Below are positions 1-57,111 of a stretch of 64,000 nucleotides of DNA, piece by piece (position 1 is the first letter of the stretch; every line of letters starts with the position of its first letter). The stretch spans positions 16,769 to 80,768 of the forward strand of contig MFDF01000006.1 in NCBI GenBank assembly GCA_001776785.1. Direction: 5' to 3'. A model generated the notes under the pieces. It did not search any database and was not told the DNA's origin. It worked only from the letters and a program-made list of their open reading frames with translations. This DNA is from Candidatus Daviesbacteria bacterium RIFCSPHIGHO2_12_FULL_37_16 (GTDB lineage: Bacteria > Patescibacteriota > Microgenomatia > Daviesbacterales > UBA10151). Made by a program: the position numbers and the translations under genes.

Positions 1-1
1 A

Positions 2-481
2 GATCCAAAAAAAGATATTGATGGATTAACTTCAAAAAGACTAGTACCTCCTGCTGCTGCAAAGGCTTCTATGCAGATTCTACTTGATGAAGGAGTTGAA
101 GTTAAGGGTAAAAATGCAGTAGTGTTGGGAGCAAGTGAACTGGTTGGAAAACCAATGGGAAGATTACTTGAGGAATATGGGGCCAAAGTTATAGTGTGCA
201 ATAGTAAAACAGAAGACTTGGTTGAAAAAACTAGAAAGGCAGATATTATAGTAAGTGCCGTAGGAAAACCCGGGATATTAACAGGAGATATGGTTTCAAA
301 AGGAGTTGTGGTTGTGGATATTGGAGCAGAAAAAGTTGGAGATAAGGTTGTAGGAGATGCAGATTTTGAAAGTGTTTCTAAAAAAGCTTCTAGGATTACT
401 CCAGTCCCTGGAGGAGTTGGTCCCATGACAATTATTGCACTTATGGAAAATGTATTAGAGCTTGTAGAGAAATACAAATAG
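2..481 (+). CDS. folD: Bifunctional methylenetetrahydrofolate dehydrogenase/cyclohydrolase FolD, 5'-truncated by the window edge
   Basis: Open frame runs from base 2 with no stop. DPKKDIDG and GKNAVVLGxSxLVGKPM...GKPG motifs are typical of FolD. C-terminal part only. Confidence 0.75.
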   Translation, partial: DPKKDIDGLTSKRLVPPAAAKASMQILLDEGVEVKGKNAVVLGASELVGKPMGRLLEEYGAKVIVCNSKTEDLVEKTRKADIIVSAVGKPGILTGDMVSKGVVVVDIGAEKVGDKVVGDADFESVSKKASRITPVPGGVGPMTIIALMENVLELVEKYK

Positions 482-3304: not shown

Positions 3305-4108
3305 ATGAGTAAGCCAAAGGTTCTAGTATTTTCAGGATATGGATTAAATTGCGAGGAGGAAACAAAGTTTGCATTTGATGAAGCTGGAGGTAAAGCTGAG
3401 ATTGTTCATATTAATGATTTAATAGATGGCTCAAAAAAATTAGAGCAGTTTCAGGTGTTAGCTTTTCCCGGGGGATTTTCCTATGGGGATGATACAGGTT
3501 CTGGGAATGCCTATGCTAATAAATTAAGAAATCATTTATGGGAAAAAATAGATAAGTTTATAAAAGGGGATAAATTAGTTATTGGGATCTGTAATGGTTT
3601 TCAAATTATAGTTAATTTAGGATTACTGCCCGCACTTGGTAAGAATTATGGGGATAGACAAGTGGCACTTTTACATAATGATAATGCCCGCTATACTGTC
3701 AGATGGGTGGATTTAAAAGTTGAAGAGTGTAGTTCTCCATGGGTAAAAAATCTTCCTGATTTTTTTGCACCTATTGCCCATGGAGAAGGAAAGTTTTATG
3801 CAAGTGATAAGGTTTTAAAAAAATTGAATGAAAATAAACAAGTAGTTTTCCGCTATACTTTGAGGGAGATTTGTGAGTTGCAGAATCTAGACCCAAATCC
3901 AAATGGGTCTTTAGAGGATATTGCAGGGATTACAGATGAATCAGGAAAGATCTTAGGGTTAATGCCCCATCCTGAGAGAGCTATGTTTTTTACCCAATTC
4001 CCCCACTGGACATATTTAAAGGAAAAATTTAAAAGAGAGGGAAAACCAATTCCAAAATTTGGACCAGGATTGCAAATTTTTAAAAATGCAGTGAATTATT
4101 TTAAATAA
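3305..4108 (+). CDS. purQ: Phosphoribosylformylglycinamidine synthase glutaminase subunit PurQ
   Basis: Class I glutamine amidotransferase with GICNGFQ catalytic Cys and MPHPER motifs. Immediately downstream of purL. Confidence 0.85.
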   Translation: MSKPKVLVFSGYGLNCEEETKFAFDEAGGKAEIVHINDLIDGSKKLEQFQVLAFPGGFSYGDDTGSGNAYANKLRNHLWEKIDKFIKGDKLVIGICNGFQIIVNLGLLPALGKNYGDRQVALLHNDNARYTVRWVDLKVEECSSPWVKNLPDFFAPIAHGEGKFYASDKVLKKLNENKQVVFRYTLREICELQNLDPNPNGSLEDIAGITDESGKILGLMPHPERAMFFTQFPHWTYLKEKFKREGKPIPKFGPGLQIFKNAVNYFK

Positions 4109-5061: not shown

Positions 5062-5586
5062 ATGAATAACTGGTATGTAATTACTGGCGGACCAAGTTCC
5101 GGCAAGACAACACTAATTAAATTATTGGGGGGCAAAGGTTACAGAGTTATCCATGAACAAGCGCGTGAATTAATTGATCAAGAATTATATAAGGGTAAAA
5201 CATTAGGACAAATTAGAAGAGACGAGGGTAAATTTCAAAAAAAAGTTCTGGAGATGAAGATTACTTTAGAAAAAAAACTTTCCAAAGAAGAGTTAATATT
5301 CTTTGACAGAGGGATTCCTGATACTTTAGCATACTGCTGGTTTCATAAGATTCCTGTTGATAAATTGTTAAAAAAAGCCCTAAAAAAATCTAGTTATAAA
5401 AAAGTATTTTTGTTGGAACTAATAAAATATTATGAGGATTATGCAAGAAATGAGAGTGCTGAAGAATCTAGAGAAATAGAAAAATTACTAGAAAAAACTT
5501 ACCGAGGACTTAATATGTCAGTGATAAAAGTTCCAGAGGGAACTATAAAAGAAAGGGTTAAATTCATACTTAAAAATATAAATTAA
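5062..5586 (+). CDS. P-loop NTPase (predicted nucleotide/nucleoside kinase-like ATPase)
   Basis: Walker A GGPSSGKTT within 15 residues of the N-terminus, in a small 174-aa protein. Confidence 0.4.
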   Translation: MNNWYVITGGPSSGKTTLIKLLGGKGYRVIHEQARELIDQELYKGKTLGQIRRDEGKFQKKVLEMKITLEKKLSKEELIFFDRGIPDTLAYCWFHKIPVDKLLKKALKKSSYKKVFLLELIKYYEDYARNESAEESREIEKLLEKTYRGLNMSVIKVPEGTIKERVKFILKNIN

Positions 5587-6857
5587 ATTATAATTAAATC
5601 TTCTCTTCCTTCACCAATCCCAATTAAGCTTATTCTGGTATCAGTTATCTGGGATATTCTATTGCAGTAAAATTGTGCCTCTAATGGTAAATCTTTAAAT
5701 TTTCTAACCCAAGATATATCCTCCATCTTAAACTTAGAAATGTTGCAGGGGATACATTTTTCCAGGGCATCATTATCATTTGCTGGAAATATATCTGTTT
5801 GTTCACCATCAAGCTGATATCCATAATTGATTTGGGCTTTCCCAAATTCTGACAGTGTATCAAGCCTTGTTAGAGCAATATCAGTGTAACCATTTAACTG
5901 ACTGGAGTATAAAGCTGCAACACCGTCAAACCAGCCAACTCTTCTTGGTCTATTAGTTGTTGCTCCATATTCATGACCCAGCTCTCTAAGCCTATCTCCT
6001 TCTTCACCTTTTAACTCTGTTGGAAAACCGCCGTTTCCAACTCTTGAATCATATGCTTTGAATACACCAATTGCCTGAGTTAGTGCAGATGGCGGAATTC
6101 CTGCACCCTGCAGTAATCCTCCAATTGTTGTTGAGGAAGAAGTTACATATGGCAGTGTTCCATAATCTTTGTCCAAAAGTGTGCCCTGTGCTCCTTCAAT
6201 TACTATTTTTGAATCATGGCTTAAATATTTATTTATTAAAGCTTGAGAATCTGTAATATATTCTTCTAATTCAAGAAACCATTGCCCCCTTAAATCTTCA
6301 TAATAATCTGTATGCAACTGGGGATTATCTGCACCCGGATAAGAATCTCGCTTTCTTTTAAGGAGAGGTTTAAGTTTTCCCATGAATGTATCCAAGTCAT
6401 TAATATCAGCAACTGATAACCCATCCCTGCTTGTTCTGTCTGTGTATGCAGGACCAATCCCTCTGTTTGTTGTTCCAATTCCTCCATTTTCTCTTTGTCC
6501 TTCTCTTAATTTATCTTCAATGATATGCACTGGAAGGACAAGAGCAGCACGGTTGCTTATTCTAATATTTGAGACATCAACACCTTTTTCTTGCAGATCA
6601 GCTATTTCATTAATAAAACTAACTGGATTGAAAACAGTTCCTGTGCCAATAATATTTAAACAATCTGGATTAAAAATACCTGAAGGGACTTGATGAAGAA
6701 CAAATTTTCCAGTCCCATTTTTTATTGTATGGCCTGCGTTATCACCGCCTTGTGCCCTGATAACTACATCTGCGGATTGTGCAAAATGATCAACAATTTT
6801 TCCTTTACCCTCGTCTCCCCATTTACCTCCATTTACTGCAATTACTTCTGCGCTCAT
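5583..6857 (-). CDS. purA: Adenylosuccinate synthetase
   Basis: N-terminus VNGGKWGDEGKGKIVD and GGDNAGHT are canonical PurA motifs. Confidence 0.9.
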   Translation of the reverse strand: MSAEVIAVNGGKWGDEGKGKIVDHFAQSADVVIRAQGGDNAGHTIKNGTGKFVLHQVPSGIFNPDCLNIIGTGTVFNPVSFINEIADLQEKGVDVSNIRISNRAALVLPVHIIEDKLREGQRENGGIGTTNRGIGPAYTDRTSRDGLSVADINDLDTFMGKLKPLLKRKRDSYPGADNPQLHTDYYEDLRGQWFLELEEYITDSQALINKYLSHDSKIVIEGAQGTLLDKDYGTLPYVTSSSTTIGGLLQGAGIPPSALTQAIGVFKAYDSRVGNGGFPTELKGEEGDRLRELGHEYGATTNRPRRVGWFDGVAALYSSQLNGYTDIALTRLDTLSEFGKAQINYGYQLDGEQTDIFPANDNDALEKCIPCNISKFKMEDISWVRKFKDLPLEAQFYCNRISQITDTRISLIGIGEGREDLIII

Positions 6858-6952: not shown

Positions 6953-7966
6953 ATGTTAAATGGCAAATTAACGATAGTTACTCTGGGATCACATTCTGCA
7001 CTACAAATTCTTAAAGGGGCAAAAGATGAAGGTTTTAAAACTTTAGTTGTAACAACAACTGAGAAAGCCCATTTTTATAAAAGATTTAAATTTATTGATG
7101 AAATTTTATCAATACCTGAATATTCAGATTTTGAAAGTATTGAAAAAAAATTAAGAAACAAAAATTGCATACTTGTTCCCCATGGATCTTTTGTTGCCCA
7201 CTTAGGGCTTGAGATAAATAAGAGAATGTCTTTGCCATATTTTGGGAATAAATCAGTATTGGACTTTGAAGCACATAGGGAAAAACAAAGACAGTGGTTG
7301 AAAAATGCAGATATTAATGTCCCGGCCCAATTTGAAGATGTTGAAAATATTTCTTATCCTGTAATTGTTAAATCTTATGGAGCTGCCGGTGGCAAGGGTT
7401 ATTTTTATGCTAAATCAAAAAATGATTTTAAGAAAAAAATGGGAAACTTTAAAGCCAAACATTATGTTATCCAGGAGTATGTAATTGGAGTAACTTTATA
7501 TATACATTATTTTTATTCTCCATTGACCAGTGAGCTTGAGATATTAAGCATGGACAGAAGATATGAAACAAATGTTGATTCTTTGGGCAGGATTCCCCTG
7601 AGAGGGCAGGTTGGTCTTAAAATTGAACCAAGCTATGTAGTTGTGGGAAACAGCCCGCTAATTTTGAGAGAGTCTTTATTGCATGAAGCTTACGATATGG
7701 GTGAGCGGATTATCAAAGCATCAAAAGAGCTGATTGATAAAAGAGGTCTTTGGGGACCATTTTGTTTAGAGACTGTCATAACAGAGGATTCTGAATTTTT
7801 TGCAATGGAGATATCCTGTAGGATTGTTGCAGGGACTAATTTATTTATTGAAGGGTCCCCATATTCCTGGCTTACATATGATGAACCTATGAGTACTGGC
7901 AGAAGAATTGCCAGAGAGATAAAAATTGCAAAAAAGAAGAATAAATTGTCTCAGGTTTTAAATTGA
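6953..7966 (+). CDS. purP: PurP-like ATP-grasp enzyme (5-formaminoimidazole-4-carboxamide ribonucleotide synthetase family), paralog 1
   Basis: N-terminus IVTLGSHSALQILKGAKDEGF matches the archaeal PurP/ATP-grasp (DUF1297) family. Confidence 0.65.
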   Translation: MLNGKLTIVTLGSHSALQILKGAKDEGFKTLVVTTTEKAHFYKRFKFIDEILSIPEYSDFESIEKKLRNKNCILVPHGSFVAHLGLEINKRMSLPYFGNKSVLDFEAHREKQRQWLKNADINVPAQFEDVENISYPVIVKSYGAAGGKGYFYAKSKNDFKKKMGNFKAKHYVIQEYVIGVTLYIHYFYSPLTSELEILSMDRRYETNVDSLGRIPLRGQVGLKIEPSYVVVGNSPLILRESLLHEAYDMGERIIKASKELIDKRGLWGPFCLETVITEDSEFFAMEISCRIVAGTNLFIEGSPYSWLTYDEPMSTGRRIAREIKIAKKKNKLSQVLN

Positions 7967-9051
7967 TGAATTATACAGTTGCAACAATTGGATCGCATAG
8001 TGCACTTGATATATGCAGAGGGGCCAAAGATGAAGGGTTTGAAACTTTAGTTGTGGCCCAAAAAGGTAGAGAAAAAACTTATGCAAAATATTATAAAACA
8101 CATGCTAATTTGGGATGTATTGATGAGGTAGTAGTATTAAATAAGTTTTCTGATATTTTATACAAAGAGATTCAAGAGAAGTTAAAAAAAAGTAATTCAA
8201 TTTTTATTCCAAACAGGTCTTTTGAGGTTTATCTGGATTTTGATTACTCCTCAATTGAAAAAAAGTTTAATATTCCAATTTTTGGGAATAAGTTTTTATT
8301 AAAAATTGAAGAAAGGTCTGCTAAACCAAACCAATATGATCTTTTGGATAAGGCAAAAATAAGAACCCCTAAAAGATTTAAAGATCCTAAAAAAATTGAC
8401 AGGCTTTGTATAGTTAAAGTTTTAGAAAGCATCAGAGGATTTGAGAGGGCCTTTTTTTTAATAGATAGTTATAAAGATTATCAAAACCAAGTTGAGCAAA
8501 GGTTAAAAAATAAAGTTTTTACCAGTGTGCAGTTAAAAAATGCTGTCATTGAAGAATTTATTACAGGGGTACAAGTTAATTTTAACTTTTTTTATTCACC
8601 TATTGATAAAAGATTAGAGCTTTTGGGAACTGACACAAGAAGACAAACAAACTTAGATGGAATACTTAGAATTCCTGTAGATCATCAACTGAAGATTATA
8701 GAAAAATTAGATGTTAAATATGAAGAGGCAGGACATATTGCAGTGACAGTTTTAGAATCTATGCTTGAGCAGATTTTTGAGATAGGTGAAAGATTTGTAA
8801 AGACCAGTCAAAAACTTTATCCCCCTGGGGTTATTGGACCATTTGCACTGCAAGCTGCAATACTTCCAGGACCTCCAAAAAAAGAAATTGTGGTTTTTGA
8901 TGTTTCCCCAAGAATGCCTGGCAGTCCCGGGATCTCTGCCACCCCCTACTCTGGTTATTTATATGGTGAACCAATTTCTGTTGGTAAAAGGATAGCAATG
9001 GAAATAAAAAGAGCAATTGAAATAGATAGATTAAAGGAGATTATAACTTAA
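7963..9051 (+). CDS. purP: PurP-like ATP-grasp enzyme, paralog 2 (start overlaps the paralog 1 stop)
   Basis: VATIGSHSALDICRGAKDEGFETLVV gives the same family signature. The ATGA overlap implies translational coupling. Confidence 0.65.
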   Translation: MMNYTVATIGSHSALDICRGAKDEGFETLVVAQKGREKTYAKYYKTHANLGCIDEVVVLNKFSDILYKEIQEKLKKSNSIFIPNRSFEVYLDFDYSSIEKKFNIPIFGNKFLLKIEERSAKPNQYDLLDKAKIRTPKRFKDPKKIDRLCIVKVLESIRGFERAFFLIDSYKDYQNQVEQRLKNKVFTSVQLKNAVIEEFITGVQVNFNFFYSPIDKRLELLGTDTRRQTNLDGILRIPVDHQLKIIEKLDVKYEEAGHIAVTVLESMLEQIFEIGERFVKTSQKLYPPGVIGPFALQAAILPGPPKKEIVVFDVSPRMPGSPGISATPYSGYLYGEPISVGKRIAMEIKRAIEIDRLKEIIT

Positions 9052-9054
9052 CCA

Positions 9055-9106
9055 TGTCATTCTGAGTGAAACGAAGAATATATCCTTCACATAGTTCGGG
9101 ATGACA
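9055..9106. repeat. Palindromic repeat element, copy A (TGTCATTC...GGGATGACA termini), in the purP2-purB intergenic region
   Basis: Terminal inverted motifs TGTCAT / ATGACA. Belongs with the copies at 17682, 31306, 57318 and 60495. Confidence 0.5.
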
Positions 9107-9120
9107 AGAAACACAATATT

Positions 9121-10509
9121 ATGAATGATTTTAAAACTTACCAATCCCCTTTTTCCTGGAGATATGGATCAAAAGAGATGAGAGAAATTTTTAGTGATGA
9201 AAATAAGTTTTTAACCTGGAGAAAGATTTGGGTTTCTTTGGCAAAAGCCCAATATGAGGCGGGATTAATTACAAAACAAGAACTTAATGATTTGGAAAAG
9301 AATCAAAAAAATTTAGATATTGAAAGAATATTAGAAATAGAAAAAGAAACCAATCATGATGTAGTTTCAGCAATTAGAGAATTTGCAGAAAAAGCAAAAA
9401 TTGGTGGTAAAAAAATTCATCTTGGTGCAACCAGCCAGGATATTGGTGACAATGCAGAGATTTTAAGAGACAAACAAGCTCTAGAGCTGGTAAGAGAGAA
9501 ATTAGTTCAGGTGATCAAAATATTTGGAGAAAAAATAGAAAAATACTCAGAACTTTCATGTATGGGCTATACCCACCTTCAGCCTGCAGAACCAACAACT
9601 TTAGGATACAGGTTTGCTTTTTATGCCCAGGATCTTTTGATAGATTTAGATTTCTTGGATTACATTTGCAAAACAATCAAAGGTAAGGGTTTAAAAGGGG
9701 CAGTTGGGACAGGAGCAAGTTATACAAGCTTACTTTATGGCAAAAAAACTTCAGCTGACCAATTAGAAAAAAGATTTTTAGCACTTTTAGATTTAGAGGC
9801 AGTAGAAATATCCAGTCAGGTTTATCCCAGAAAATTTGATTATTTAATTTTGACAGTTTTAAATTCTATCTCCTCGTCTCTTGCAAAGTTTGCTTTTGAT
9901 TTAAGAATTATGCAGTCCCCTGGGTTTGGGGAATGGCAGGAACCATTTTCTAAAAACCAGGTAGGGTCTTCTGCTATGCCGTTTAAGAAAAACCCATTAA
10001 ACTCAGAAAAGATTTGTTCCCTGGCAAGATATATTAATAATTTACCTCCAGTATTAGCAGAAAATGCCTCCAATTCCCTACTTGAGAGGACCTTAGATGA
10101 TTCTGCCAATAAGAGAGTTATTTTACCTGAGGCTTTTTTAGTTGCAGATGAAATATTAAAAACTTCCCAAAAAATAATTTTAGGAATATTAATAAATGAA
10201 AAAAAGATTAAATCTAATTTAGATCTTTATGCCCCATTTTCTGCTGTTGAATCAGTAATTATAGAAGCTGTAAAAAAAGGAGCTGACAGACAAGAGGTAC
10301 ATGAACACTTAAGAGAGCTTTCTATGAAATCATGGGGGAGGATACAAGATGGAGAAATTAATCCAATGATAGAAATGCTATTAAAGGATGCATATTTACT
10401 GAGGTACTTAAAATCAAGTGAGATTGAAAATTTACTTGATGTAAGAGGACACATTGGAGATGCACCTAAAAGAGCATTAAGGCTTGTTAAAATAATAAGA
10501 AAGTTGTAA
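9121..10509 (+). CDS. purB: Adenylosuccinate lyase
   Basis: Lyase_1/fumarase-fold motifs (GSSAMPFKKNP). Length and N-terminus are typical of PurB. Confidence 0.85.
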   Translation: MNDFKTYQSPFSWRYGSKEMREIFSDENKFLTWRKIWVSLAKAQYEAGLITKQELNDLEKNQKNLDIERILEIEKETNHDVVSAIREFAEKAKIGGKKIHLGATSQDIGDNAEILRDKQALELVREKLVQVIKIFGEKIEKYSELSCMGYTHLQPAEPTTLGYRFAFYAQDLLIDLDFLDYICKTIKGKGLKGAVGTGASYTSLLYGKKTSADQLEKRFLALLDLEAVEISSQVYPRKFDYLILTVLNSISSSLAKFAFDLRIMQSPGFGEWQEPFSKNQVGSSAMPFKKNPLNSEKICSLARYINNLPPVLAENASNSLLERTLDDSANKRVILPEAFLVADEILKTSQKIILGILINEKKIKSNLDLYAPFSAVESVIIEAVKKGADRQEVHEHLRELSMKSWGRIQDGEINPMIEMLLKDAYLLRYLKSSEIENLLDVRGHIGDAPKRALRLVKIIRKL

Positions 10510-10518
10510 AAAATCTTA

Positions 10519-11052
10519 ATGAGTAAAAGTTTAGTTGGGATAATAATGGGGTCTGATTCTGATTTACCTGTTATGGCAGATGCTTGTAAGGTTTTAGAAG
10601 AGTTTAACATTCCATTTGAAATAAAAGTTCTATCAGCGCATAGGGCACCTGATTTAGTTACAGAATATGCAAAAGGTGCAAATTTAAAAGGGCTAAAGGT
10701 AATTATTGCAGCAGCTGGAGGGGCTGCCCATCTGGCAGGGGTTGCTGCAGCCCACTGCCCTTTGCCAGTAATTGGTGTTCCAATTAAGGGGAAAACTTTG
10801 GATGGGCTTGATTCACTGCTTTCTATTGTCCAAATGCCACCCGGAATTCCAGTTGCGACAGTTTCTATAGATGGAGCAAGAAATGCAGGAATTTTAGCTA
10901 TTGAAATATTAGCAGTTAGTGATAAAAGTTTAATTAAAAAGTTATTAGAATTTAAAAAGAATTTAAAAGAACAAATAATTTTAAAAAATGATAAATTAAA
11001 AAAAATAGGCTATAAGAAATTCCTGGAAGAAAAAGAAAAGGCCAATGGTTAG
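10519..11052 (+). CDS. purE: N5-carboxyaminoimidazole ribonucleotide mutase (AIR carboxylase catalytic subunit)
   Basis: VGIIMGSDSDLPVM...SAHR motifs. Confidence 0.85.
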   Translation: MSKSLVGIIMGSDSDLPVMADACKVLEEFNIPFEIKVLSAHRAPDLVTEYAKGANLKGLKVIIAAAGGAAHLAGVAAAHCPLPVIGVPIKGKTLDGLDSLLSIVQMPPGIPVATVSIDGARNAGILAIEILAVSDKSLIKKLLEFKKNLKEQIILKNDKLKKIGYKKFLEEKEKANG

Positions 11053-12028
11053 TAAAAATAAAATTTTAAAAGCTATCCCTAATATTTTAAAAACAGTTAA
11101 TATCCCAAACCTGGGAGAAAAACACCAGGGTAAAGTAAGGGATTATTATGTATTGGCTGATGAGCAAAGCTCGCGCTTGCGCACTAAAAGAATAATTATT
11201 ACAACAGACAGGCAGTCTGCTTTTGATCGGGTTTTAGGACATATCCCCTATAAAGGAGCTGTCTTAAATTTATTGTCTGCTTTTTGGTTTGATAAGACAA
11301 AAGATATTATAGATAACCACTGGGTCTGCAACCTCTATTATAATGTAATAGTTGTCAAAAATTGTCAGATCATCCCAATTGAAATGGTCGTCAGAGGCTA
11401 TATTACAGGAGTTACAGATACTTCCATCTGGGGATCTTATGAAAAAGGTGAGCGGGTTATTTATGGAATTAAATTTCCTGACGGGCTTAAGAAAAACCAG
11501 AAACTCCCCTCCCCTGTTATTACTCCAACTACAAAAGCAGAGAGCGGCCATGATGAAAGATTAACAGAAAAAGAAATTTTAGAAAAAAAGATAGTTTCAA
11601 AAAAACTTTGGACACAAATGAAAAAAGCTGCAGTGGAGCTTTTTGAAAGAGGCAGTAAAATTTGTGACAGGGCTGGAATAATACTTGCAGATACTAAATA
11701 TGAGTTTGGACTTTTCAATGGAAAACTAATGCTTATTGATGAAGTCCATACACCTGATTCTTCAAGATTTTGGGTTAAGAAAAGTTACAAAGACAGGTTA
11801 AAAAAAGGATTAGAGCCTGAAAGTTATGATAAAGAAATTTTAAGGATCTGGTTTAAAGAAAAAGGATATAGTGGGGAGGGAAAACCTCCAAAAATGCCTG
11901 ATGATTTTTTAGTTAAAATGAGCCAAAGGTACATTGGGATCTATGAAAAAATTACAGGGAAGAAATTTAAAACATTTGATTACCCAATAGAAAAAAGGAT
12001 CAGAGATAGTTTAAAAAAAATTGGATGA
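11045..12028 (+). CDS. purC: SAICAR synthetase
   Basis: GKVRDxY...TDRxSAFD motifs of the long-form PurC. Confidence 0.8.
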   Translation: MVSKNKILKAIPNILKTVNIPNLGEKHQGKVRDYYVLADEQSSRLRTKRIIITTDRQSAFDRVLGHIPYKGAVLNLLSAFWFDKTKDIIDNHWVCNLYYNVIVVKNCQIIPIEMVVRGYITGVTDTSIWGSYEKGERVIYGIKFPDGLKKNQKLPSPVITPTTKAESGHDERLTEKEILEKKIVSKKLWTQMKKAAVELFERGSKICDRAGIILADTKYEFGLFNGKLMLIDEVHTPDSSRFWVKKSYKDRLKKGLEPESYDKEILRIWFKEKGYSGEGKPPKMPDDFLVKMSQRYIGIYEKITGKKFKTFDYPIEKRIRDSLKKIG

Positions 12029-13185
12029 AGAAATTACACTATGAACAGTCTGGGGATAACTATAAATTAAAAGATCCTTATAAACTGATTGCACTTGCTG
12101 CTACCAGAAAAACCAGAAAAAATTTAAAGAGATTTTCTAAATATGGGATTGAGGTATTGGACCAGGATAATAGTAGAGGTGAGAGTGCATATAGAATTAA
12201 ATTTGCATCTAAAAAACCAGTAGATTTTGAATTTGCCCATGTTGAAGAATCTATTGGGACAAAAAATATGATTGCAGATGAACTTCAAAAAATTTATAGA
12301 GAAAGTTTTTATTTTTCCATTGGGATTGATAATGTAGCAACTATTGTTAATGACCTTTCAACCTGCGGGGCATTCCCTTTAAGTTTTATGCTTCACATTG
12401 GGGCCTTTCCAAATGAGTGGTATTTAGAACAGGAAAAGATTAAAGCATTAATGGATGGGACTGCATATGCATGTAATTTAGCAGGATGTGCTTGGGGTGG
12501 TGGTGAATCAGGGACTGACAGGGATATTATCTATCCAGGAAGGTCACTTTTATCAGGATCTGCAACAGGGATTATTATTCCCTCCTCTAAAGTTTTATCT
12601 GAGGAAAAATTAAAAGATGGCGACAGAATAATTGTTTTTGAAAGCAGCGGAGTCCATACAAATGGAATAACGCTTTTAAGAAAAGAGCTTTTAAAAAGAT
12701 TGCCTAAAGGGTACAAAACAAAACTTTCAGATGGAACAGGTTATGGAGAAGCTTTACTGACTCCTTCTATCATTTATTCAAAACTTGTTGAGGATCTAAT
12801 TGTTAATACAGAGGTTCATTATGCAGTCCACATAACTGGCCATGGATGGAGAAAATTAATGAGATCTAAAAGGAATTTTTCATATATTGTAGATTTTGTT
12901 CCAAAACCCCAGCCAGTCTTTGAATTTATTCAAAGACATACAAACTCTTCTGATAAAGATATGTATGAAACATATAATATGGGTGCAGGCTTTGCGGTTT
13001 TTGTGCCCCCATCTCAAGTGCAAAAAGTTTTGCAAATTTTCAAGAAGAATGAACAAGTTCTTTCTCGCTTCGCTCGAAATAAAATTAAAGCCTGGGATGC
13101 AGGTTTTATAAAAAAGGGTGAAAGAAAAGTTGTTATAAATCCATTGAGATTAGAGTTTTTAGGCGAAGAGCTTATTCTGCGCTAG
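12025..13185 (+). CDS. purM: Phosphoribosylformylglycinamidine cyclo-ligase (AIR synthetase)
   Basis: PurM blocks are present: IGIDNVA..VNDL, GGGESG, SSGVHTNG, HITGHG, YNMGAGF. Confidence 0.7.
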   Translation: MKKLHYEQSGDNYKLKDPYKLIALAATRKTRKNLKRFSKYGIEVLDQDNSRGESAYRIKFASKKPVDFEFAHVEESIGTKNMIADELQKIYRESFYFSIGIDNVATIVNDLSTCGAFPLSFMLHIGAFPNEWYLEQEKIKALMDGTAYACNLAGCAWGGGESGTDRDIIYPGRSLLSGSATGIIIPSSKVLSEEKLKDGDRIIVFESSGVHTNGITLLRKELLKRLPKGYKTKLSDGTGYGEALLTPSIIYSKLVEDLIVNTEVHYAVHITGHGWRKLMRSKRNFSYIVDFVPKPQPVFEFIQRHTNSSDKDMYETYNMGAGFAVFVPPSQVQKVLQIFKKNEQVLSRFARNKIKAWDAGFIKKGERKVVINPLRLEFLGEELILR

Positions 13186-16167: not shown

Positions 16168-17433
16168 CTAGAATAATCCCATCTGCTCCTCCTCTTTTAA
16201 TTTATCCTCATTTTCATCCCAGATTTTAACTACTCCATAAGTATTATCAAAACCTGGTTTTATAGTTAGTTTTCCTTTCCTAATCCTTTTAACGCCTTCT
16301 GCAATTTTTACTCCTGCATATTTTTCAATTTGTTCAAGTGGAGTTTTAGTTAAGATTTTTAATTCTGTATCTAGTGTTGTAACCAGTCTTTCATATTCAT
16401 TTTTGACTTTTTGGGAGGAGACTGTAGAATTTAGAGCTTCTGCAATTATTTCCTCCAGCTGAACCAGCATTCTGAATCCAGGCTTATCAGGAAATGCTTT
16501 TGATTTAATTACTCCATTTTCATTTGAAATTTGTAATTTGTCATTTGAAATTCCTGCAAGGTCCTCTACTCTTTGCATTACTCCAACTGTTAATTTTCTT
16601 TTACATTTGGGACAAATTACTCCTTTTTCTTTAAGCTCCTCTGGTCCATAAACTACTCCACAATTTCTGTGACCTGAGTAGTGGTATTTTCCCTCTTCCG
16701 GGAAAAATTCTATGGTACCAATGATTTTTCTTTGTTTAACTGACTTAGATAAACCCTCAAATGAACATTCCCCTCCAATTATTGTGGCTTCCCGTCCAAG
16801 CCTTGGCAGGGAGTGGGCATCTGAAAAAGAAAGTATGGCCTTTTCATCTAAGTCTTTTACTCTCCAATTCATGGCAGGTTCAGAAGATAAACCTGTTTCT
16901 ATGCCATAAATTTTGTCAGAAAAATCTCCAAAGCAGTCTGCAAATTTGTCATAGCCTGACTGCGACCCAAATAGAGAAAACCAGGGGGTCCAGATATGGG
17001 CAGGTATTATTAGGGCTTCTGGCTCTACAGAAAAAACTATTTCACACAAAGCTTTAGTGCTCATTCCCATAATTGGCCTGCCATCTGAAACCAGGTTGAT
17101 GCCTTTTTTTGTTAAGACTTCTGATAATTTTGCTGCAGAATCTAAGTTTGGCAGGAAAATTAAAATGTGGATCCTTCTAACTCTTCCTGCCTCTGAATAA
17201 ATACAGGCAACCTCTGTTGTGGGGATAAAAGTTATGCCATTAACCTGATATTTGCCATCAACCAATTTTAAATCTTTTTTTAATTCTGCCTGCCAAAGTG
17301 GGTGAAGACAATCCCCTGTTCCCATTAGACTTATACCTTTATATTTTGCCCATTTAGCTAGATTGGGGATGTTTAGTGCTGATGAACAGGCCCTGGAGAA
17401 TCTGGAGTGGATGTGTAAGTCTGCTACATAAGC
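16168..17433 (-). CDS. PHP-domain nuclease, endonuclease Q-like, with C-terminal zinc ribbon
   Basis: ADLHIHSRFSRA PHP motif and CPKCKRK Zn finger. The track ORF extends to 17616, but the MAYVADLHIHS start at 17433 avoids overlap with tatD. Confidence 0.5.
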   Translation of the reverse strand, partial: AYVADLHIHSRFSRACSSALNIPNLAKWAKYKGISLMGTGDCLHPLWQAELKKDLKLVDGKYQVNGITFIPTTEVACIYSEAGRVRRIHILIFLPNLDSAAKLSEVLTKKGINLVSDGRPIMGMSTKALCEIVFSVEPEALIIPAHIWTPWFSLFGSQSGYDKFADCFGDFSDKIYGIETGLSSEPAMNWRVKDLDEKAILSFSDAHSLPRLGREATIIGGECSFEGLSKSVKQRKIIGTIEFFPEEGKYHYSGHRNCGVVYGPEELKEKGVICPKCKRKLTVGVMQRVEDLAGISNDKLQISNENGVIKSKAFPDKPGFRMLVQLEEIIAEALNSTVSSQKVKNEYERLVTTLDTELKILTKTPLEQIEKYAGVKIAEGVKRIRKGKLTIKPGFDNTYGVVKIWDENEDKLKEEEQMGLF

Positions 17434-17440
17434 CATAGAT

Positions 17441-18325
17441 TTGATTATTGTACAATATGTGCCAATGCTATTTGATACCCATTCACATATCCAGTTTAAA
17501 TCTTTTGATAAAAACAGAAAAAACGTTATTGAGAGGGCAAAAAAAGCTGGGGTTAAGAAAATTATTGCTATAGGGACTGATTTAGAATCTTCTAAAAAAG
17601 CAGCAGAAATTTCCATAGAATATCCTGAAGTTTTTGCATCTGTTGGAATCCATCCCCACCATGTATTTAGCTACCTTTCTCGTCATTCCGAATTTATTTC
17701 GGAATCTTATAAAGAGATCCTGAAACAAGTTCAGGATGACGGGGTTGGTGTTCAGGATGACATTAGACATTTAGAAGACTTATTTAGCAACCCTAAAGTT
17801 GTAGCTGTTGGGGAAACAGGAATGGATAAATACCAATATAAAATTACCAAGTACTCCAATTATTCAGTATCCAAACAATTTATCAAATTACAAAAGGAAA
17901 TATTTAAAATGCAGATTAAGCTGGCAATTATGTATAAAAAAGCTTTAATAATCCACAACAGAGAAGCAGTTGAGGAAACTTTAGAAGTTTTAAAAGAAAG
18001 TTGGGATAAAAAATTAGAAGGAAGAACAGTTTTCCATTATTGTGAACCAGACAAAAGAGTTTTAGATTTTGCAAAATCCCACAAAATTTATATTGGAGTT
18101 GATGGGGATGTTTTAACTGATAAAATAAAACAGGAATTTGTTAAAATAATCCCTCTGGATTTGTTAGTTTTAGAAACAGACTCCCCTTTTCTAAACTCTG
18201 AACCTGCAAAAATAAAAACAATTTTAGAATTTATTTCTAAACTTTTAAAAATTCAACCTAAAGGATTTGAAAAAATATTATTCAATAATAGTTCTTATTT
18301 ATTCAATAACTACTTGCTTAAATAA
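17441..18325 (+). CDS. tatD: TatD-family metal-dependent DNase (with an in-frame repeat-element insertion)
   Basis: FDTHSHIQF, GIHPHH, GETGMD motifs. The likely true start is MLFDTHSH at 17465. A ~30-aa insertion is encoded by palindromic element B. Confidence 0.75.
   Translation: MIIVQYVPMLFDTHSHIQFKSFDKNRKNVIERAKKAGVKKIIAIGTDLESSKKAAEISIEYPEVFASVGIHPHHVFSYLSRHSEFISESYKEILKQVQDDGVGVQDDIRHLEDLFSNPKVVAVGETGMDKYQYKITKYSNYSVSKQFIKLQKEIFKMQIKLAIMYKKALIIHNREAVEETLEVLKESWDKKLEGRTVFHYCEPDKRVLDFAKSHKIYIGVDGDVLTDKIKQEFVKIIPLDLLVLETDSPFLNSEPAKIKTILEFISKLLKIQPKGFEKILFNNSSYLFNNYLLK
17682..17763. repeat. Palindromic repeat element, copy B, in-frame inside tatD
   Basis: GTCATTCCGAATTTATTTCGGAATC hairpin, CCTGAACAAGTTCAGG hairpin, and two CAGGATGAC ends. 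Encodes RHSEFISESYKEILKQVQDDGVGVQDD. Confidence 0.55.
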
Positions 18326-19056: not shown

Positions 19057-20784
19057 TTATTTCTTAAACTGCAACTTATACATCTCTTTTAATTCTTTGA
19101 CTGTTGTAGCGTCCTCAGCTTGTTTATCTTTTTCCCTAAATTTAACAAGCCTTGGGAAGCGCAGGGCATAGCCCACACCAGTTTCATCTTTGCCTGCAGT
19201 GTGGGTTGGGGACCTTGTGATTTCATCTGCTAAAATTTCTATAACTATTTCTGGGGCAATCCAGACAGATGGGGTCATAATAGAATTTATCCTGGCAGGC
19301 TTTTTATTAACTTTAATTTTGTCTGCCCGCTTGTGAATCTCCCTCCATTCTTCATCTGTTAAACCTGTGCCAATTTTTGAAACAGTTACAAATTCATCTT
19401 TATCTTTATCATAAACTCCAACTAAAAGTGCGCCTGCACCAAATTCTGCCCTTTTTCCTCTGCCAAAGATATAACCTAAAATTACACAGTCCACTGTGTC
19501 TTTTAATTCACCTGCAGAATGCCTTTTTTGTTTGACCCAGTTAAAATTTCTGGCACCTGCTTCATATTTTGAATCAGGCCTTTTAACTATTAAACCCTCT
19601 AAACCTTCTGAGATAGCTTCATCAAAAAGAGCCTGGATCCTTTCCGGCTTATCTGTAATTTCCCCGGGTTCTGCAATTAAAACTTCATTGCCATCAATAA
19701 CTTTTTCCAAAACTTTTATCCTTTCTGAAACCGGCTCATCCATTAAGGAACTACCATTTAAAAACATTACATCAAAGACCATGGCTTTTAAGGGCAGCCT
19801 TTTAACAGCTTCTTCTATGCCATGCTTTCTTCTTCTTTGGGTTGTTTCCTGGAATGGCAGGAATTCTTCTGACTGCGGGTTAAAGGCTAAGGCTTCTGAG
19901 TCTAAAATTGCAGTCTTGGCTTTAACCTGACTAATAACCCCTTTAATAATATCTGGAAACATTGGGGTGGTTTCTTCTAAATTTCTGGAAAAGAGTCTGA
20001 TATTATCCCCATCTTTGTGGATCTGGACCCTAAAGCCATCAAACTTTTTCTGGACATGGGCTGAGCCATCAAACTTTTTTATAATAGCTTCTGCATTAGG
20101 CAGCCTTTCAGCAAGCTGCGACCTAATAGGCCTGCCTACTGTAACATCTAATTTTTCTACACCCTTTAAACCATCTTTCCAAAGGGTTTGGCCAATTAAC
20201 CCCAAGTCTGAAACTTTGTTGTATGCCCCCTCTAAAAGTTTTCTTTTGGACTTATCCCCAAGTTTTGTGAGGGCAAAGGCATCCAAAATTGTTGGGTCCC
20301 CTATTCCTAACCTTGAGGTACCAAGTGGGACTCTGACTAAATGTTTTGCCTCAATTCCCGATGACTTTTCCAGTAAATTAGTTAGGGCAGATATTTTATT
20401 TTCTACTGTTCCATCACCTGAAAATTTGGCAATTTTTAAAAGGGAGTCAAAAATTTCTTTGATAGATTGGTCTTTACTCTTTTTATTGCCAGCCAGGTCT
20501 GCTGCAACACTCCCTAAGTCCCCTACTTTGCCATACATTTTAGTAATATCTTCTAAAGGTTTCCCATAAACCCTGGACATGGCTTTGGCAACAGATTTTT
20601 CTGCCATACCAATCTCTATTGGCTCATAAAAAGGTGCTACTCTGCCCTGGAGAAGATAGGAGATTATAGGAATTTCTTCTGCACCTGCTTTTTTAAAAAG
20701 TTTTGAGAGAATATCAATTAGGGAAAGCCTAGAGGAAGTACTCTCCAGTTTTTCAAAATATTCAGATAATTGTTTAAAAGTCAT
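19057..20784 (-). CDS. lig: ATP-dependent DNA ligase (archaeal/eukaryotic Lig-type)
   Basis: KFDGFRVQIHKDG adenylation motif with an N-terminal DNA-binding domain. 575 aa. Confidence 0.85.
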   Translation of the reverse strand: MTFKQLSEYFEKLESTSSRLSLIDILSKLFKKAGAEEIPIISYLLQGRVAPFYEPIEIGMAEKSVAKAMSRVYGKPLEDITKMYGKVGDLGSVAADLAGNKKSKDQSIKEIFDSLLKIAKFSGDGTVENKISALTNLLEKSSGIEAKHLVRVPLGTSRLGIGDPTILDAFALTKLGDKSKRKLLEGAYNKVSDLGLIGQTLWKDGLKGVEKLDVTVGRPIRSQLAERLPNAEAIIKKFDGSAHVQKKFDGFRVQIHKDGDNIRLFSRNLEETTPMFPDIIKGVISQVKAKTAILDSEALAFNPQSEEFLPFQETTQRRRKHGIEEAVKRLPLKAMVFDVMFLNGSSLMDEPVSERIKVLEKVIDGNEVLIAEPGEITDKPERIQALFDEAISEGLEGLIVKRPDSKYEAGARNFNWVKQKRHSAGELKDTVDCVILGYIFGRGKRAEFGAGALLVGVYDKDKDEFVTVSKIGTGLTDEEWREIHKRADKIKVNKKPARINSIMTPSVWIAPEIVIEILADEITRSPTHTAGKDETGVGYALRFPRLVKFREKDKQAEDATTVKELKEMYKLQFKK

Positions 20785-42058: not shown

Positions 42059-42730
42059 TTACTTGTCAAGGGTGTTTAAATATTGGGCACAGAGGCCTGG
42101 AGTGCGGGCAATGATAAAAACTGCATTGGAAAGTTTCGGATCCCAACCAAGGGTACAGAGTACAACTGCTATAGCTGCATCTATATTTAAAGGCAGTTTC
42201 TTGCCTTTTTGAGCTTCCATTTCCTTCTCCAGATCCCTGGCAATATTTATAAATTTATTATCCATATTAAACTCAGACATTTTCTCAAAAATTAATTTGG
42301 TCCTTGGGTCTTCATCTTTGTAGATCCTGTGGCCCAAGCCTGGCATACGCTTATCATCTTTCAAATACTCATCAACTAAATTGTTAATTGGTAATTGTTC
42401 ATTGTTAATTGAATAGAGAATTTCCATGCAGGGTTCGATTGCTCCACCATGGGAAGAGTTTATTTGCAAAATTCCTGCTGCAACTGATTCTGAGATATTT
42501 TTTCCATCAAGAGAAGCCTGGATTGTGGCTACTGCTGAGGGTGTTTCTGCCCCATGATCTATAGATAAATTTAAGATAAGTTCAAAGATTTTAAGTTCAT
42601 TCTCAGAAGGAGTTTTTTCTGAGAGCATTTCAAAGATTAATTGAGCAAAAGAAGATTTTTGGGAGACCAAAAGGTGGTCTTTATCCCCAAAATATGACTT
42701 GAGCTCTTTGTGCTTAACAGTTTTAGCCAT
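42059..42730 (-). CDS. Citrate synthase-like domain protein (citryl-CoA lyase-like)
   Basis: HGGAIE and GLGHRIYKDEDPR correspond to the citrate synthase catalytic His blocks. At 223 aa it is too short for a full citrate synthase, like the Ccl/AclA C-terminal domain. Confidence 0.5.
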   Translation of the reverse strand: MAKTVKHKELKSYFGDKDHLLVSQKSSFAQLIFEMLSEKTPSENELKIFELILNLSIDHGAETPSAVATIQASLDGKNISESVAAGILQINSSHGGAIEPCMEILYSINNEQLPINNLVDEYLKDDKRMPGLGHRIYKDEDPRTKLIFEKMSEFNMDNKFINIARDLEKEMEAQKGKKLPLNIDAAIAVVLCTLGWDPKLSNAVFIIARTPGLCAQYLNTLDK

Positions 42731-42782
42731 GTTTTATGAATTTTCAATTTTTAATTTTAAATTTGAATTCAAATTGTAAATT

Positions 42783-43688
42783 TCAAATTTTAAATTGTAA
42801 AGCCTTTTTTAGTAATCCTGCTATTTGGTCAAAATCTTCAACAACTAGAACACCACTCTCCTTAAGAACCATTCTCTTGTGGTCTGGTTTACCTCTTTCC
42901 CCTTCAATTATTGCACCTGCATGGCCAAATTGCACCTCTGAAGGTAAAGTCATTGTGAACTCACCTGCAATAAATGCTACTATAGGTTTTTTAATCTTTC
43001 CAGCTTTGACCATTTCTGCTACTCTTTCTTCATAAGTTCCACCCAGTTCTCCAAAAATAACAGAAGCTTGAGTATTAGGATCATCTTCAACTGCCATTAA
43101 AAAATCTGCAAAATCTGTGCCTGCAATCCTGTCCCCACCTATTCCTAAAGCATATGAAACACCCAAACCATTATTTCTTAAGTGAAGACCAATTTCACTG
43201 CTCATGCCTCCTGATTTTGAGATAATACAGATATTACCTTCCTTAAAAACCCTGTCAGGGTCTGCCCCACCTATTGAGCCTATTTTTAGTTTTTTTGCAG
43301 GATTTATCAGGCCCACAGAAGAAGGTCCAATAATATTTGCTCCCTTTTCTTGTGCCAGAGCATAAATATATGCAGAATCAGAAGTAGGCACTTTTTCTGT
43401 GAATATCAGCAAAAATTTGATTCCAGCCTCTAAGGCTTCCACAGCTGCAGCTTTTACAAACAGTGGTGGCACATATATTACAGTTGCATCAATCTCACCA
43501 AATTTCTCTGACAATTCTTTTACAGAATTAAAAACAGGCACACCTAAAACATCAGTGCCTCCTTTACCTGGGGTTACTCCTCCAACTACTTTTGTGCCAT
43601 AGCTTAACATGGTTTCCAAAGCCTTTGAGCCCTCTGAACCAGTGATACCTTGGCCAATTAATTTAGGATTATCAGGTAAAATTAACAT
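42783..43688 (-). CDS. Succinyl-CoA synthetase alpha-like / citryl-CoA synthetase small subunit-like (CoA-binding, phosphohistidine)
   Basis: GITGSEG...GTKVVGGVTPGKGG...GHAGAI phospho-His loop. Confidence 0.7.
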   Translation of the reverse strand: MLILPDNPKLIGQGITGSEGSKALETMLSYGTKVVGGVTPGKGGTDVLGVPVFNSVKELSEKFGEIDATVIYVPPLFVKAAAVEALEAGIKFLLIFTEKVPTSDSAYIYALAQEKGANIIGPSSVGLINPAKKLKIGSIGGADPDRVFKEGNICIISKSGGMSSEIGLHLRNNGLGVSYALGIGGDRIAGTDFADFLMAVEDDPNTQASVIFGELGGTYEERVAEMVKAGKIKKPIVAFIAGEFTMTLPSEVQFGHAGAIIEGERGKPDHKRMVLKESGVLVVEDFDQIAGLLKKALQFKI

Positions 43689-43769
43689 CGTATAAAGTTT
43701 ATCGGTTTCGATGCCCGTTTGGTTTAGGGGTTACGTTTAACGTCCAACTCCCTTACGATACTGGCTTCG

Positions 43770-44924
43770 TTACCCATTTCCTCCTAACTTTTCAGCATAT
43801 TCTTTGGCAAGCTTAACAATTATCTCTGCTGAGGCTGGAATTGAGGTGTCCTCACCATATAAATGCAGATCAAATTCTTTAACTTTTTTAAGCATTTCAA
43901 AAGCTTCATCATCCCTTGGTCCTGCCCTTCTTATGACTATTGGATATTTGGGATTAGGTTCAATTTTTTTCAGGGCATCAATTATGCCAGATAAAGTTTC
44001 ATAGATATCTGTAAAGTTAGCCAGGGCCCCTACTATCCAGAGACCATTTAAATTGGGTTTGTCTAAAACTATTTTAGTTAACTTCTCCACTTTTTCCCTT
44101 GGTGGGTTGCCTGAATATTCTGTAAAGTTTGCAGGCTTGCCACCTGCATTTAAAAGTGCATCCATGGCTGTGATTGAGGCTCCTCCTCCTGAGGCTAAAA
44201 TTGCAATGTCCCCATCAAAGTCAAAGTAAGTTGAGCCTGCAACACCCCTGTAGTCATTTTCATCAATTTTTTTAGCTTCTATCTCATTTTTAGTTGGAGT
44301 GTAGCCTGCAACAGAGCGGGGGGGGTAATCCTTCCAGGCTTCATGCCTGCCAATGGCAGTATCATCTAATTTTATTTTTGCATCCAAAGCTATCCAGCCA
44401 TCTTTGGTTTTTACAAGGGGATTAATTTCTAATAAAAGCATGTCTTGTTCAAAGAAGAGCTTGACCAGCTTATTTACTATTTCAGTTATATCATTTGGGT
44501 GTGCGACCGCACACTTTAGTGATAATGGGTCCACTGGATAAACTTGCACTTCCTTTTCTTCTATTCCTGTTCCCCCAGCTTCTGAGAAGGTTAAAATAGG
44601 AGATCTTGAATCTGTGTCATAGGATAAAGAGAGGTAATATTCTTTCTCAATCTCTACCTTTTCTTCTACCAAAACCTTTTCCACCTTTTCCTTATTAATT
44701 ATTTTTCCCAACAAATTTGAAATTTGAAATTTGAAATTTGAAATTTCGTCGCAGACGACTATTCCTCCAGCATCTGCCCTTTTGCCTGAGAGGACCTGAG
44801 CTTTAAGGACAACAGGATACTGCAGAGCTCTGAGCTCAGAGCTCTGATTGAATAGTTGGGAGGCTGGGACTTTGATGCCTGCATCAGCTAAAAGCTTTTT
44901 TCCTTCAAATTCAAAGAGGATCAT
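43770..44924 (-). CDS. Succinyl-CoA synthetase beta-like / citryl-CoA synthetase large subunit-like (ATP-grasp)
   Basis: N-terminal ATP-grasp and C-terminal GDIAILASGGGASITAMDALLNAGGKPANF ligase-CoA domain. Confidence 0.7.
   Translation of the reverse strand: MILFEFEGKKLLADAGIKVPASQLFNQSSELRALQYPVVLKAQVLSGKRADAGGIVVCDEISNFKFQISNLLGKIINKEKVEKVLVEEKVEIEKEYYLSLSYDTDSRSPILTFSEAGGTGIEEKEVQVYPVDPLSLKCAVAHPNDITEIVNKLVKLFFEQDMLLLEINPLVKTKDGWIALDAKIKLDDTAIGRHEAWKDYPPRSVAGYTPTKNEIEAKKIDENDYRGVAGSTYFDFDGDIAILASGGGASITAMDALLNAGGKPANFTEYSGNPPREKVEKLTKIVLDKPNLNGLWIVGALANFTDIYETLSGIIDALKKIEPNPKYPIVIRRAGPRDDEAFEMLKKVKEFDLHLYGEDTSIPASAEIIVKLAKEYAEKLGGNG
44713..44747. repeat. Perfect heptanucleotide tandem repeat (AAATTTG)x5 inside the sucC-like CDS
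   Basis: Read directly. 35 bp, not a multiple of 3. The same AAATTTG/AAATTTC motif recurs in the AT-rich 42731-42782 intergenic region. Confidence 0.6.
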
Positions 44925-45040
44925 TTCTTTATGAGTTTATATTTTCTTTCCTAAAATTGCAAAGCAATTTTGAAAGGAGGAACAGATGCAAACTGGAACA
45001 ATTCAGAAATTGTGGAAGTTGAAATCTTGTTCCGACGCAG

Positions 45041-57101: not shown

Positions 57102-57111
57102 AACTAATATG

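Follow-up and report, generated by a model that had tools for sequence, protein, structure and literature searches.

Results

A tandem pair of PurP-family genes in a Daviesbacteria contig

The stretch of DNA analyzed here, referred to as the window, comprises 64,000 nt (positions 16,769-80,768) of contig MFDF01000006.1 from Candidatus Daviesbacteria bacterium RIFCSPHIGHO2_12_FULL_37_16. Within a purine biosynthetic operon it contains two adjacent open reading frames (ORFs) of the PurP family, ORF A (purP-A) and ORF B (purP-B), which lie head to tail on the + strand and are 36% identical to each other. Proteins encoded in the window were searched against Pfam and NCBIfam profiles with curated cutoffs and against PDB sequences, and the window was scanned with Rfam. 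The domains PF06849 (DUF1246) and PF06973 (DUF1297) span both ORFs end to end and in order, with E-values of 1e-39 to 1e-68. The two domain scores are 135.6 and 230.3 bits for ORF A and 146.5 and 219.1 bits for ORF B, against Pfam cutoffs of 25 and 23.8. Both ORFs also align over their full length with three solved PurP-family structures, ORF A matching 2R84 (Pyrococcus furiosus PF1517) at 3.9e-107 over residues 5-336 with 53.5% identity, and ORF B matching 2R7K (Methanocaldococcus jannaschii PurP) at 5.3e-73 over residues 4-361. An earlier, sequence-only reading of the locus had proposed two adjacent PurP genes, and this assignment is borne out. Scores against other ATP-grasp families are marginal, at about 20 bits; with PurK models ORF A reached only 18-20 bits (cutoffs 318-375) and ORF B gave no match, and ORF B had no detectable match to PurT models.

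The same reading described a 4-nt overlap between the two ORFs, which applies only if ORF B starts at TTG 7963 (362 aa). The start is most likely ATG 7966. The resulting 361-aa product is identical to a database protein (P0121), and this start gives a 1-nt overlap with the stop codon of ORF A in the sequence TGATG.

In Archaea, PurP proteins are divided into four groups (Brown et al. 2011, PMC3261824; Cruz et al. 2019, PMC6486802). Activity has been demonstrated only for PurP I (cluster Ia), exemplified by MJ0136 of M. jannaschii, a formate- and ATP-dependent FAICAR synthetase (EC 6.3.4.23); the P. furiosus proteins PF1517 and PF0421 exemplify PurP II (cluster Ib) and PurP III (cluster II), respectively; and PurP IV, e.g., TK0431, is an uncharacterized group (PMC3261824, PMC6486802). 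PurP II and PurP III always co-occur in Archaea (61 taxa) and are often adjacent (PMC6486802, PMC3261824). Cluster I is marked by a (K/R)GG(K/R)G phosphate-binding loop (P-loop) and Asn258, and cluster II by a loop that is two residues longer and lacks glycines, together with His258; His27 and Arg314, which contact the formyl group, are 100% conserved across archaeal PurPs (PMC3261824). Residue numbers are those of M. jannaschii PurP, and the residue roles are taken second-hand from Brown et al. 2011.

Both ORFs have the two-domain ATP-grasp architecture of MJ0136 (2R7K-2R7N), which is encoded by a single-copy gene in a host that has PurO, whereas the present locus has two paralogs, no purO in the window, and a bacterial host. 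ORF A is 46% identical to MJ0136 and shares with it Asn258 (which contacts the carboxamide of 5-aminoimidazole-4-carboxamide ribonucleotide, AICAR), His27, Ser94, Ser266, and Arg314. All residues described as AICAR, formyl, or ATP contacts in the M. jannaschii enzyme are retained. Its P-loop, AGGKG, has the GG-K-G core and the length of the (K/R)GG(K/R)G motif at positions 161-165, but the first residue is Ala; this position is Ala or Ser in all A-type proteins of the candidate phyla radiation (CPR), in contrast to Lys/Arg in the PF1517 type. PF1517 (2R84-2R87) is the closest solved relative of ORF A, with a similar length, similar motifs, and a PurP III partner that is often adjacent, as here. 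It originates from a hyperthermophile, whereas ORF A belongs to a low-GC lineage of environmental metagenome-assembled genomes (MAGs).

ORF B, which is 40% identical to MJ0136, likewise retains His27, Ser94, Ser266, and Arg314. It carries both features diagnostic of the PF0421 (PurP III) type: its loop, LESIRGFERAFF, is two residues longer than the P-loop and the glycine motif is absent, and residue 258 is His. Residue 310 is Asp. The ATP-grasp Lys156, the adenine-contacting EE pair Glu199/Glu200, and an acidic metal ligand are all preserved in ORF B, which probably still binds a nucleotide.

When full-length family members were reduced to 66 representatives (50% identity clusters), they split cleanly into two classes, one with the motifs PHGSF, GG(K/R)G, GN, and FE.S.R and the other with PNRSF, xERAFF with two extra residues, GH, and FD.S.R. 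Databases label A-type proteins 'formate--phosphoribosylaminoimidazolecarboxamide ligase' and B-type proteins 'DUF1297 domain-containing protein'. One of the 66 representatives, a III-type protein that is ∼53-54% identical to ORF B, is encoded next to a I/II-type gene at the archaeal locus L090 (recognizable by PolB, Pus10, and SRP54). Given the published markers (residue 258, His27, and Arg314 in both ORFs, the longer loop in ORF B, and the core and length of the P-loop in ORF A), ORF A almost certainly corresponds to archaeal PurP II (cluster Ib) and ORF B to PurP III (cluster II), so that the tandem represents this archaeal pair in a bacterium. That the two ORFs are this specific archaeal pair was overlooked in the sequence-only reading.

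The host and the related loci

The host of the pair is a bacterium of the Microgenomates within the CPR, in line with the bacterial setting that had been proposed. Profile searches of the window identified peptidyl-tRNA hydrolase (Pth), Pol I, FtsH, and RecF around the pair, and the best source-named homologs of ORF A and ORF B are labeled Daviesbacteria, Roizmanbacteria, or other Patescibacteria. Relatives were collected by scanning the GTDB species genomes, which gave 415 pattern-matched stretches encoding a B-type relative. The best 80 of these loci were analyzed by mapping reference proteins onto them, and the locus counts given below refer to this set; related loci and contigs compared with the window carry the labels L001-L091. 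The names attached to the 80 loci are of Microgenomates type (Davies-, Roizman-, Levy-, Woese-, Curtiss-, and Gottesmanbacteria) or are generic or placeholder MAG labels. Among L011-L089, many records with a clearly Microgenomates-type operon bear the title 'uncultured Gammaproteobacteria bacterium', and 'Candidatus Limnocylindrales' appears on one; on these MAG records such titles look like placeholder or wrong taxonomy.

Conservation of the pair

Both purP genes occur together in the pur operon in 76/80 loci, and the remaining four loci are cut by contig ends. The genes are directly adjacent in 63 of the 76; they are split by purH in eight loci and by purA in four, and are inverted in one. 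Key residues (His27, Ser94, Ser266, Arg314, etc.) are invariant in the 76 A-type and 80 B-type relatives, with or without purH in the operon, and residue 258 is Asn in every A-type (76/76) and His in every B-type relative (80/80). The residues specific to B (R93, E159, R162, R164, R229, Q230, H258, L264, D310, and S318-P319-G320) are invariant or nearly so, as are F166 and F167 of the B loop. Since these residues are invariant and B is at least as conserved as A (mean pairwise identity 68.5% for B and 65.5% for A), ORF B is not a decaying copy.

The pair is associated with genes acting at inosine monophosphate (IMP). In many species purA, whose product consumes IMP, is found beside or between the two purP genes: it is the divergent neighbor of purP-A in the window and in Daviesbacteria-type operons, and in four species it separates purP-A from purP-B. 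In L090, guaA follows the pair. The same position of guaA after the PurP pair has been described in A. fulgidus (PMC3261824). In one Patescibacteria MAG (L056, positions 7492-11077), purA, purP-A, and purP-B form an isolated unit: no further pur gene lies within 10 kb, and the surroundings, which include DnaE, are bacterial. This three-gene unit resembles the situation in Korarchaeum, which retains only the adjacent PurP pair and purB (PMC3261824).

Layout of the operon

The part of the operon that lies in the window is listed in Table 1. Profile searches confirmed purL with its PurS-like N terminus, a separate purQ, purA, purB, purE, purC, and purM, all of which the sequence-only reading had named.

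Table 1. Genes of the purine operon within the window
Feature	Position	Strand	Evidence and remarks
folD, 3' part (methylene-tetrahydrofolate dehydrogenase/cyclohydrolase)	1..481	+	PF02882 4e-50, profile positions 24-158; gene crosses left window edge
purL with PurS-like N-terminal domain, 938 aa	486..3302	+	AIRS, AIRS_C, FGAR-AT linker, PurS 25.5 bits (cutoff 22.2); TIGR01736 2.3e-137
purQ (formylglycinamidine ribonucleotide (FGAM) synthase glutaminase subunit)	3305..4108	+	PF13507 9.8e-78; TIGR01737 above cutoff
HAD-like ORF, 316 aa	4108..5058	+	DFDNT near N terminus and GDD near C terminus, read from translation
AAA_28/NadR-like small kinase, 174 aa	5062..5586	+	PF13521 5.9e-39
purA (adenylosuccinate synthetase)	5583..6857	-	PF00709 1.1e-140; NF002223 above cutoff; divergent from purP-A
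purP-A (ORF A), cluster Ib/PurP II-type ATP-grasp, 337 aa	6953..7966	+	PF06849 and PF06973; 2R84 3.9e-107
purP-B (ORF B), cluster II/PurP III-type ATP-grasp, 361 aa	7966..9051	+	PF06849 and PF06973; 2R7K 5.3e-73
purB (adenylosuccinate lyase)	9121..10509	+	TIGR00928 1.4e-118, above cutoff
purE (class-I-like N5-carboxyaminoimidazole ribonucleotide (N5-CAIR) mutase)	10519..11052	+	TIGR01162 207 bits (cutoff 149.6)
purC (phosphoribosylaminoimidazole-succinocarboxamide (SAICAR) synthetase)	11045..12028	+	PF01259 9.9e-67
purM-like aminoimidazole ribonucleotide (AIR) synthetase, divergent sequence	12025..13185	+	AIRS 38.9 bits, AIRS_C 51 bits; operon position conserved in relatives

Two features of the operon had been misjudged at the window edge. 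Because the window starts inside folD, the reported lack of purF, purN, and purD is an artifact, and FolD, which had been placed at the start of the operon, is encoded in its middle. On contigs with an identical 938-aa PurL, the genes directly upstream of purL are purF (467 aa), purN (200 aa), purD (430 aa), and folD (273 aa). Contigs L007 and L008 carry the full 273-aa folD with purF-purN-purD ahead of it, and the contigs that extend to the left also encode an identical ORF B. The full operon reads purF-purN-purD-folD-purSL-purQ-[HAD-like]-[AAA_28]-purA(-)-purP-A-purP-B-purB-purE-purC-purM. Formylation of glycinamide ribonucleotide (GAR) in the window lineage is covered by the folate-dependent PurN, with FolD alongside.

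Neither profile nor protein searches found a homolog of purH, purO, or purK in the operon or anywhere in the 64-kb window, in agreement with the absence of purH noted from the sequence. It should be noted that purE scores as a class-I N5-CAIR mutase, yet purK was not found in the operon or window; in Levybacteria and some other relatives purK lies directly upstream of purE. The 938-aa PurL has an N-terminal extension of ∼200 residues that starts with the PurS-like domain, and with purQ separate it represents an intermediate between the small three-subunit and the large single-chain forms of FGAM synthase. In L001, PurL is 771 aa long and is preceded by a separate 217-aa ORF without a recorded Pfam match.

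The HAD-like ORF has no Pfam or NCBIfam match. Together with the AAA_28 gene it forms a lineage-specific insert between purQ and purA, and the two are always found together; the same insert lies upstream of purP-A in L015, L039, and a closed Roizmanbacteria genome (L091). In place of this insert, Levybacteria carry a gene for a histidine phosphatase, located between purH and purP-B, and a phosphatase gene thus recurs beside the PurP pair. The HAD-like ORF was considered as a missing cyclohydrolase, which is unlikely given its phosphatase-type motifs and its occurrence in only a few lineages. A promoter and terminator scan from purA to purM gave sites no more numerous than in shuffled sequence, and the Rfam scan of the window detected no riboswitch (e.g., ZTP) and only three tRNAs.

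A proposed function for the pair

We tentatively propose that the pair is a horizontally acquired, folate-independent module for the conversion of AICAR to IMP, in which A is the formylating enzyme and B either carries out ring closure or is required as a partner, and we place our confidence in this proposal somewhat short of even. The broader statement that the pair acts on AICAR and its formylated product FAICAR (5-formamidoimidazole-4-carboxamide ribonucleotide) to make IMP is probably correct. The narrower statement that ORF B specifically is the cyclizing enzyme is possible but doubtful. Slightly more doubtful is the most complete version, in which PurP III would be a third kind of IMP cyclohydrolase, derived from an ATP-grasp FAICAR synthetase, and would form with PurP II a self-contained module that moved as a unit from Archaea into the ancestor of the Microgenomates and has been kept since, sometimes beside PurH.

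According to this proposal, the pair would have entered the ancestor of the lineage as a unit by horizontal transfer from Archaea. From formate and ATP, ORF A would make formyl phosphate, the intermediate suggested for M. jannaschii PurP, and would formylate the 5-amino group of AICAR to give FAICAR. ORF B would bind the same nucleotide, with Ser94 and Ser266 contacting the 5'-phosphate and His27 and Arg314 contacting the formyl group. With the glycine-rich phosphate loop replaced and the carboxamide contact Asn258 exchanged for an invariant His, ORF B would most likely close the ring from FAICAR to IMP, His258 acting on the carboxamide nitrogen. Where purH is absent, the pair would be the only route from AICAR to IMP; where an intact copy is present, the pair would provide a parallel branch that runs on formate, much as PurT works alongside PurN in E. 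coli. PurH itself, a bifunctional AICAR transformylase/IMP cyclohydrolase, catalyzes the steps proposed here for the pair, but it has an unrelated fold and depends on folate.

Formate- and ATP-dependent formylation is the natural assignment for ORF A because it has all the contacts of the active M. jannaschii enzyme. The formate-dependent AICAR formylation of the sequence-only reading is therefore plausible, and its description of a mosaic bacterial and archaeal pathway holds. The residue pattern of ORF B is in keeping with a FAICAR-binding enzyme that would act on the carboxamide, i.e., with ring closure. The archaeal phyletic data point in the same direction: PurP I is accompanied by PurO in 25/25 taxa, and a known IMP cyclohydrolase is absent from 37/61 taxa with PurP II and III (PMC6486802). 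FAICAR does not cyclize spontaneously under assay conditions, and the crenarchaeal cyclohydrolase is still to be identified (PMC6797443). In the operon of the window lineage, every other de novo step except that of purK is encoded, and the two PurPs are the sole candidates there for steps 9 and 10. Among the related loci, 18 operons with full coverage between purF and purB likewise lack purH. A comparison of the purH-less operons revealed no further unknown gene that recurs specifically in them; the recurrent extras are guaA-, prs-, and HAD-like, with identities read from N-terminal sequences.

Several observations weigh against this proposal. In 38/80 loci a full-length purH shares the operon with both PurPs, one further copy is cut, and CP066689.1, a closed Roizmanbacteria genome, shows the same combination. 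Both PurH domains have intact catalytic motifs in each of the 38 (the numbering relative to human ATIC is provisional), so that in purH-bearing species the pair is redundant on paper. The idea that the pair replaces purH is weakened by the intact purH that about half of the related species keep in this operon. A copy of purH elsewhere in the window genome is quite possible, because purH is found in three different positions among the collinear operons: it follows purP-B, separates purP-A from purP-B, or lies between purF and purL. Furthermore, neither PF1517 nor PF0421 showed FAICAR-synthetase activity in vitro (PMC6486802, PMC3261824). The NCBIfam PurP equivalogs (NF009778-NF009783) were not reached at their cutoffs by either ORF, the best scores being 400 vs 580 bits for ORF A and 292 vs 556 bits for ORF B. 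Lastly, the ATP-grasp Lys, EE, and metal ligand of ORF B would be unneeded by a simple cyclohydrolase.

The varied placement of purH, its absence from at least 18 fully covered operons, and an identity of only ∼40% between the Levybacteria-type and Daviesbacteria-type PurH proteins suggest repeated gain, loss, or relocation of this gene around a stable PurP pair. The combination of PurP III with a bifunctional purH is found in 10/61 archaeal taxa (PMC6486802), compared with about half of the related bacterial species, where it occurs in the same operon. With a Daviesbacteria PurH as query, the 120 closest matches listed all came from loci already known to carry purH.

Alternative explanations

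In the main rival reading, A and B are the subunits of a single hetero-oligomeric FAICAR synthetase that uses formate and ATP, such as a hexamer of an A trimer and a B trimer; B would be co-catalytic or structural, and PurH or another cyclohydrolase encoded elsewhere would close the ring. We consider it unlikely. In its favor, PurP II and III strictly co-occur in Archaea and now in bacteria, the two genes are tightly coupled here through the TGATG overlap, and about half of the related operons contain an intact PurH. In addition, each P. furiosus protein was inactive in assays alone, PF1517 is a hexamer with a weak trimer-trimer interface, and Cruz et al. 2019 proposed heterohexamers on these grounds (PMC6486802). 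However, the invariant B substitutions appear to line the active site, as would be expected of a changed rather than a decayed catalytic site, and 37 archaeal taxa have the pair without a known cyclohydrolase (PMC6486802). The two genes are also split by purH or purA or inverted in 13/76 loci. In a mirror-tree comparison, the A-B distance matrices correlate with r = 0.77, within the background of 0.44-0.84 (0.70-0.84 for A or B vs PurB/PurD) and below the control, the known PurL-PurQ complex, at 0.94, which is at most weak evidence against an obligate complex. An improbable alternative is that the pair acts outside steps 9 and 10, for example in a PurK-like carboxylation of AIR or on another nucleotide related to imidazole or to 5-aminoimidazole-4-carboxamide ribonucleoside monophosphate (ZMP), in salvage or detoxification, with PurH the enzyme of steps 9 and 10 in every genome. 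Levybacteria, in which the pair accompanies a canonical pathway that seems complete, with both purK and purH present, would suit such a role, as would the archaeal II and III proteins without FAICAR-synthetase activity, the HAD-like or histidine phosphatase gene that recurs next to the pair, and the missing purK in the operon of the window. Yet ORF A and the active M. jannaschii enzyme have identical AICAR, formyl, and ATP contacts, PF1517 binds ATP and AICAR (PMC6486802), and 18 fully covered operons and 37 archaeal taxa hold no other candidate for steps 9 and 10. As a substitute for PurK in particular, the pair is unlikely, since purK coexists with it in Levybacteria and PurK occurs together with II and III in most Crenarchaeota.

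PurT, PurK, and PurP share the ATP-grasp fold and an acyl-phosphate chemistry on a purine-pathway amine, and both PurP and PurT are thought to use formyl phosphate, which lends some appeal to a role of ORF B as a formate-dependent, PurT-like GAR transformylase. A would then be the AICAR enzyme and both formylations would be folate-independent, as the sequence-only reading had suggested for the second paralog. Levybacteria-type operons hold PurN and PurH beside the two PurPs, the pattern expected of two back-ups, and four related operons (L016, L032, L085, and L086) lack purN between purF and purD. We nonetheless regard this role as very improbable. The operon of the window has its own purN just upstream, as do most related operons, so that a PurT-like enzyme is unnecessary, and archaea with PurP II and III generally own purN or purT, the seven that lack both not tracking PurP III (PMC3261824). 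The AICAR phosphate contacts and the formyl contacts are moreover conserved in ORF B, and neither ORF has a meaningful sequence match to PurT or PurK, a bona fide purK being found beside the pair in relatives. Lastly, a PurT-like ORF B would leave IMP cyclization unexplained in the purH-less operons.

Significance

The pair described here is a bacterial occurrence of a known archaeal gene pair and not a new kind of system. PurP has so far been regarded as a signature of Archaea; when 1,403 complete genomes were surveyed in 2019, it was found in Archaea only (PMC6486802), and in the literature searched, no paper was found that links PurP to the CPR or Patescibacteria. The unit under selection, in two domains of life, is a two-gene pair and not a single gene. 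The bacterial loci provide a second, independent phyletic data set on the roles of PurP II and III, and the same data bear on purine ring closure in Crenarchaeota and Pyrococci, where PurH2 and PurO are both missing. An intact purH often accompanies the pair, and this is a new constraint for which any functional model must account. Since the host lineage consists of MAGs from groundwater and similar samples, its proteins are presumably not thermophilic, and they would probably be an easier system than the hyperthermophilic proteins for which assays were negative.

Other features of the window

Several further features of the window lie outside the purine operon. A tRNA-Ile with the anticodon TAT (UAU), a rare way of decoding AUA, is encoded at 57111-57182 (-), and two tRNA-Met(CAT) genes are located at 45040-45115 and 54323-54395. 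Three adjacent genes at 42059-44924 (-) resemble an ATP-citrate lyase or citryl-CoA synthetase/lyase set, with the domains ATP-grasp_2 and Citrate_bind, CoA_binding and CoA ligase, and citrate synthase C-terminal; such a set is unexpected in a reduced CPR genome. Genes of archaeal/eukaryotic type are found at 19057-20784 (-) and 16168-17616 (-), comprising an ATP-dependent DNA ligase (DNA_ligase_A_N/M/C) and a protein that has an MJ0043_C domain in its counterpart on contig L006. A tyrosine recombinase is encoded at 55724-56605 and a HerA/FtsK-like ATPase at 57383-59743. The most GC-rich region of the window (0.40-0.45 vs ∼0.35 elsewhere) contains a 1774-aa ORF at 46832-52156 (+), whose only recognizable domain is that of glycosyltransferase family 9.

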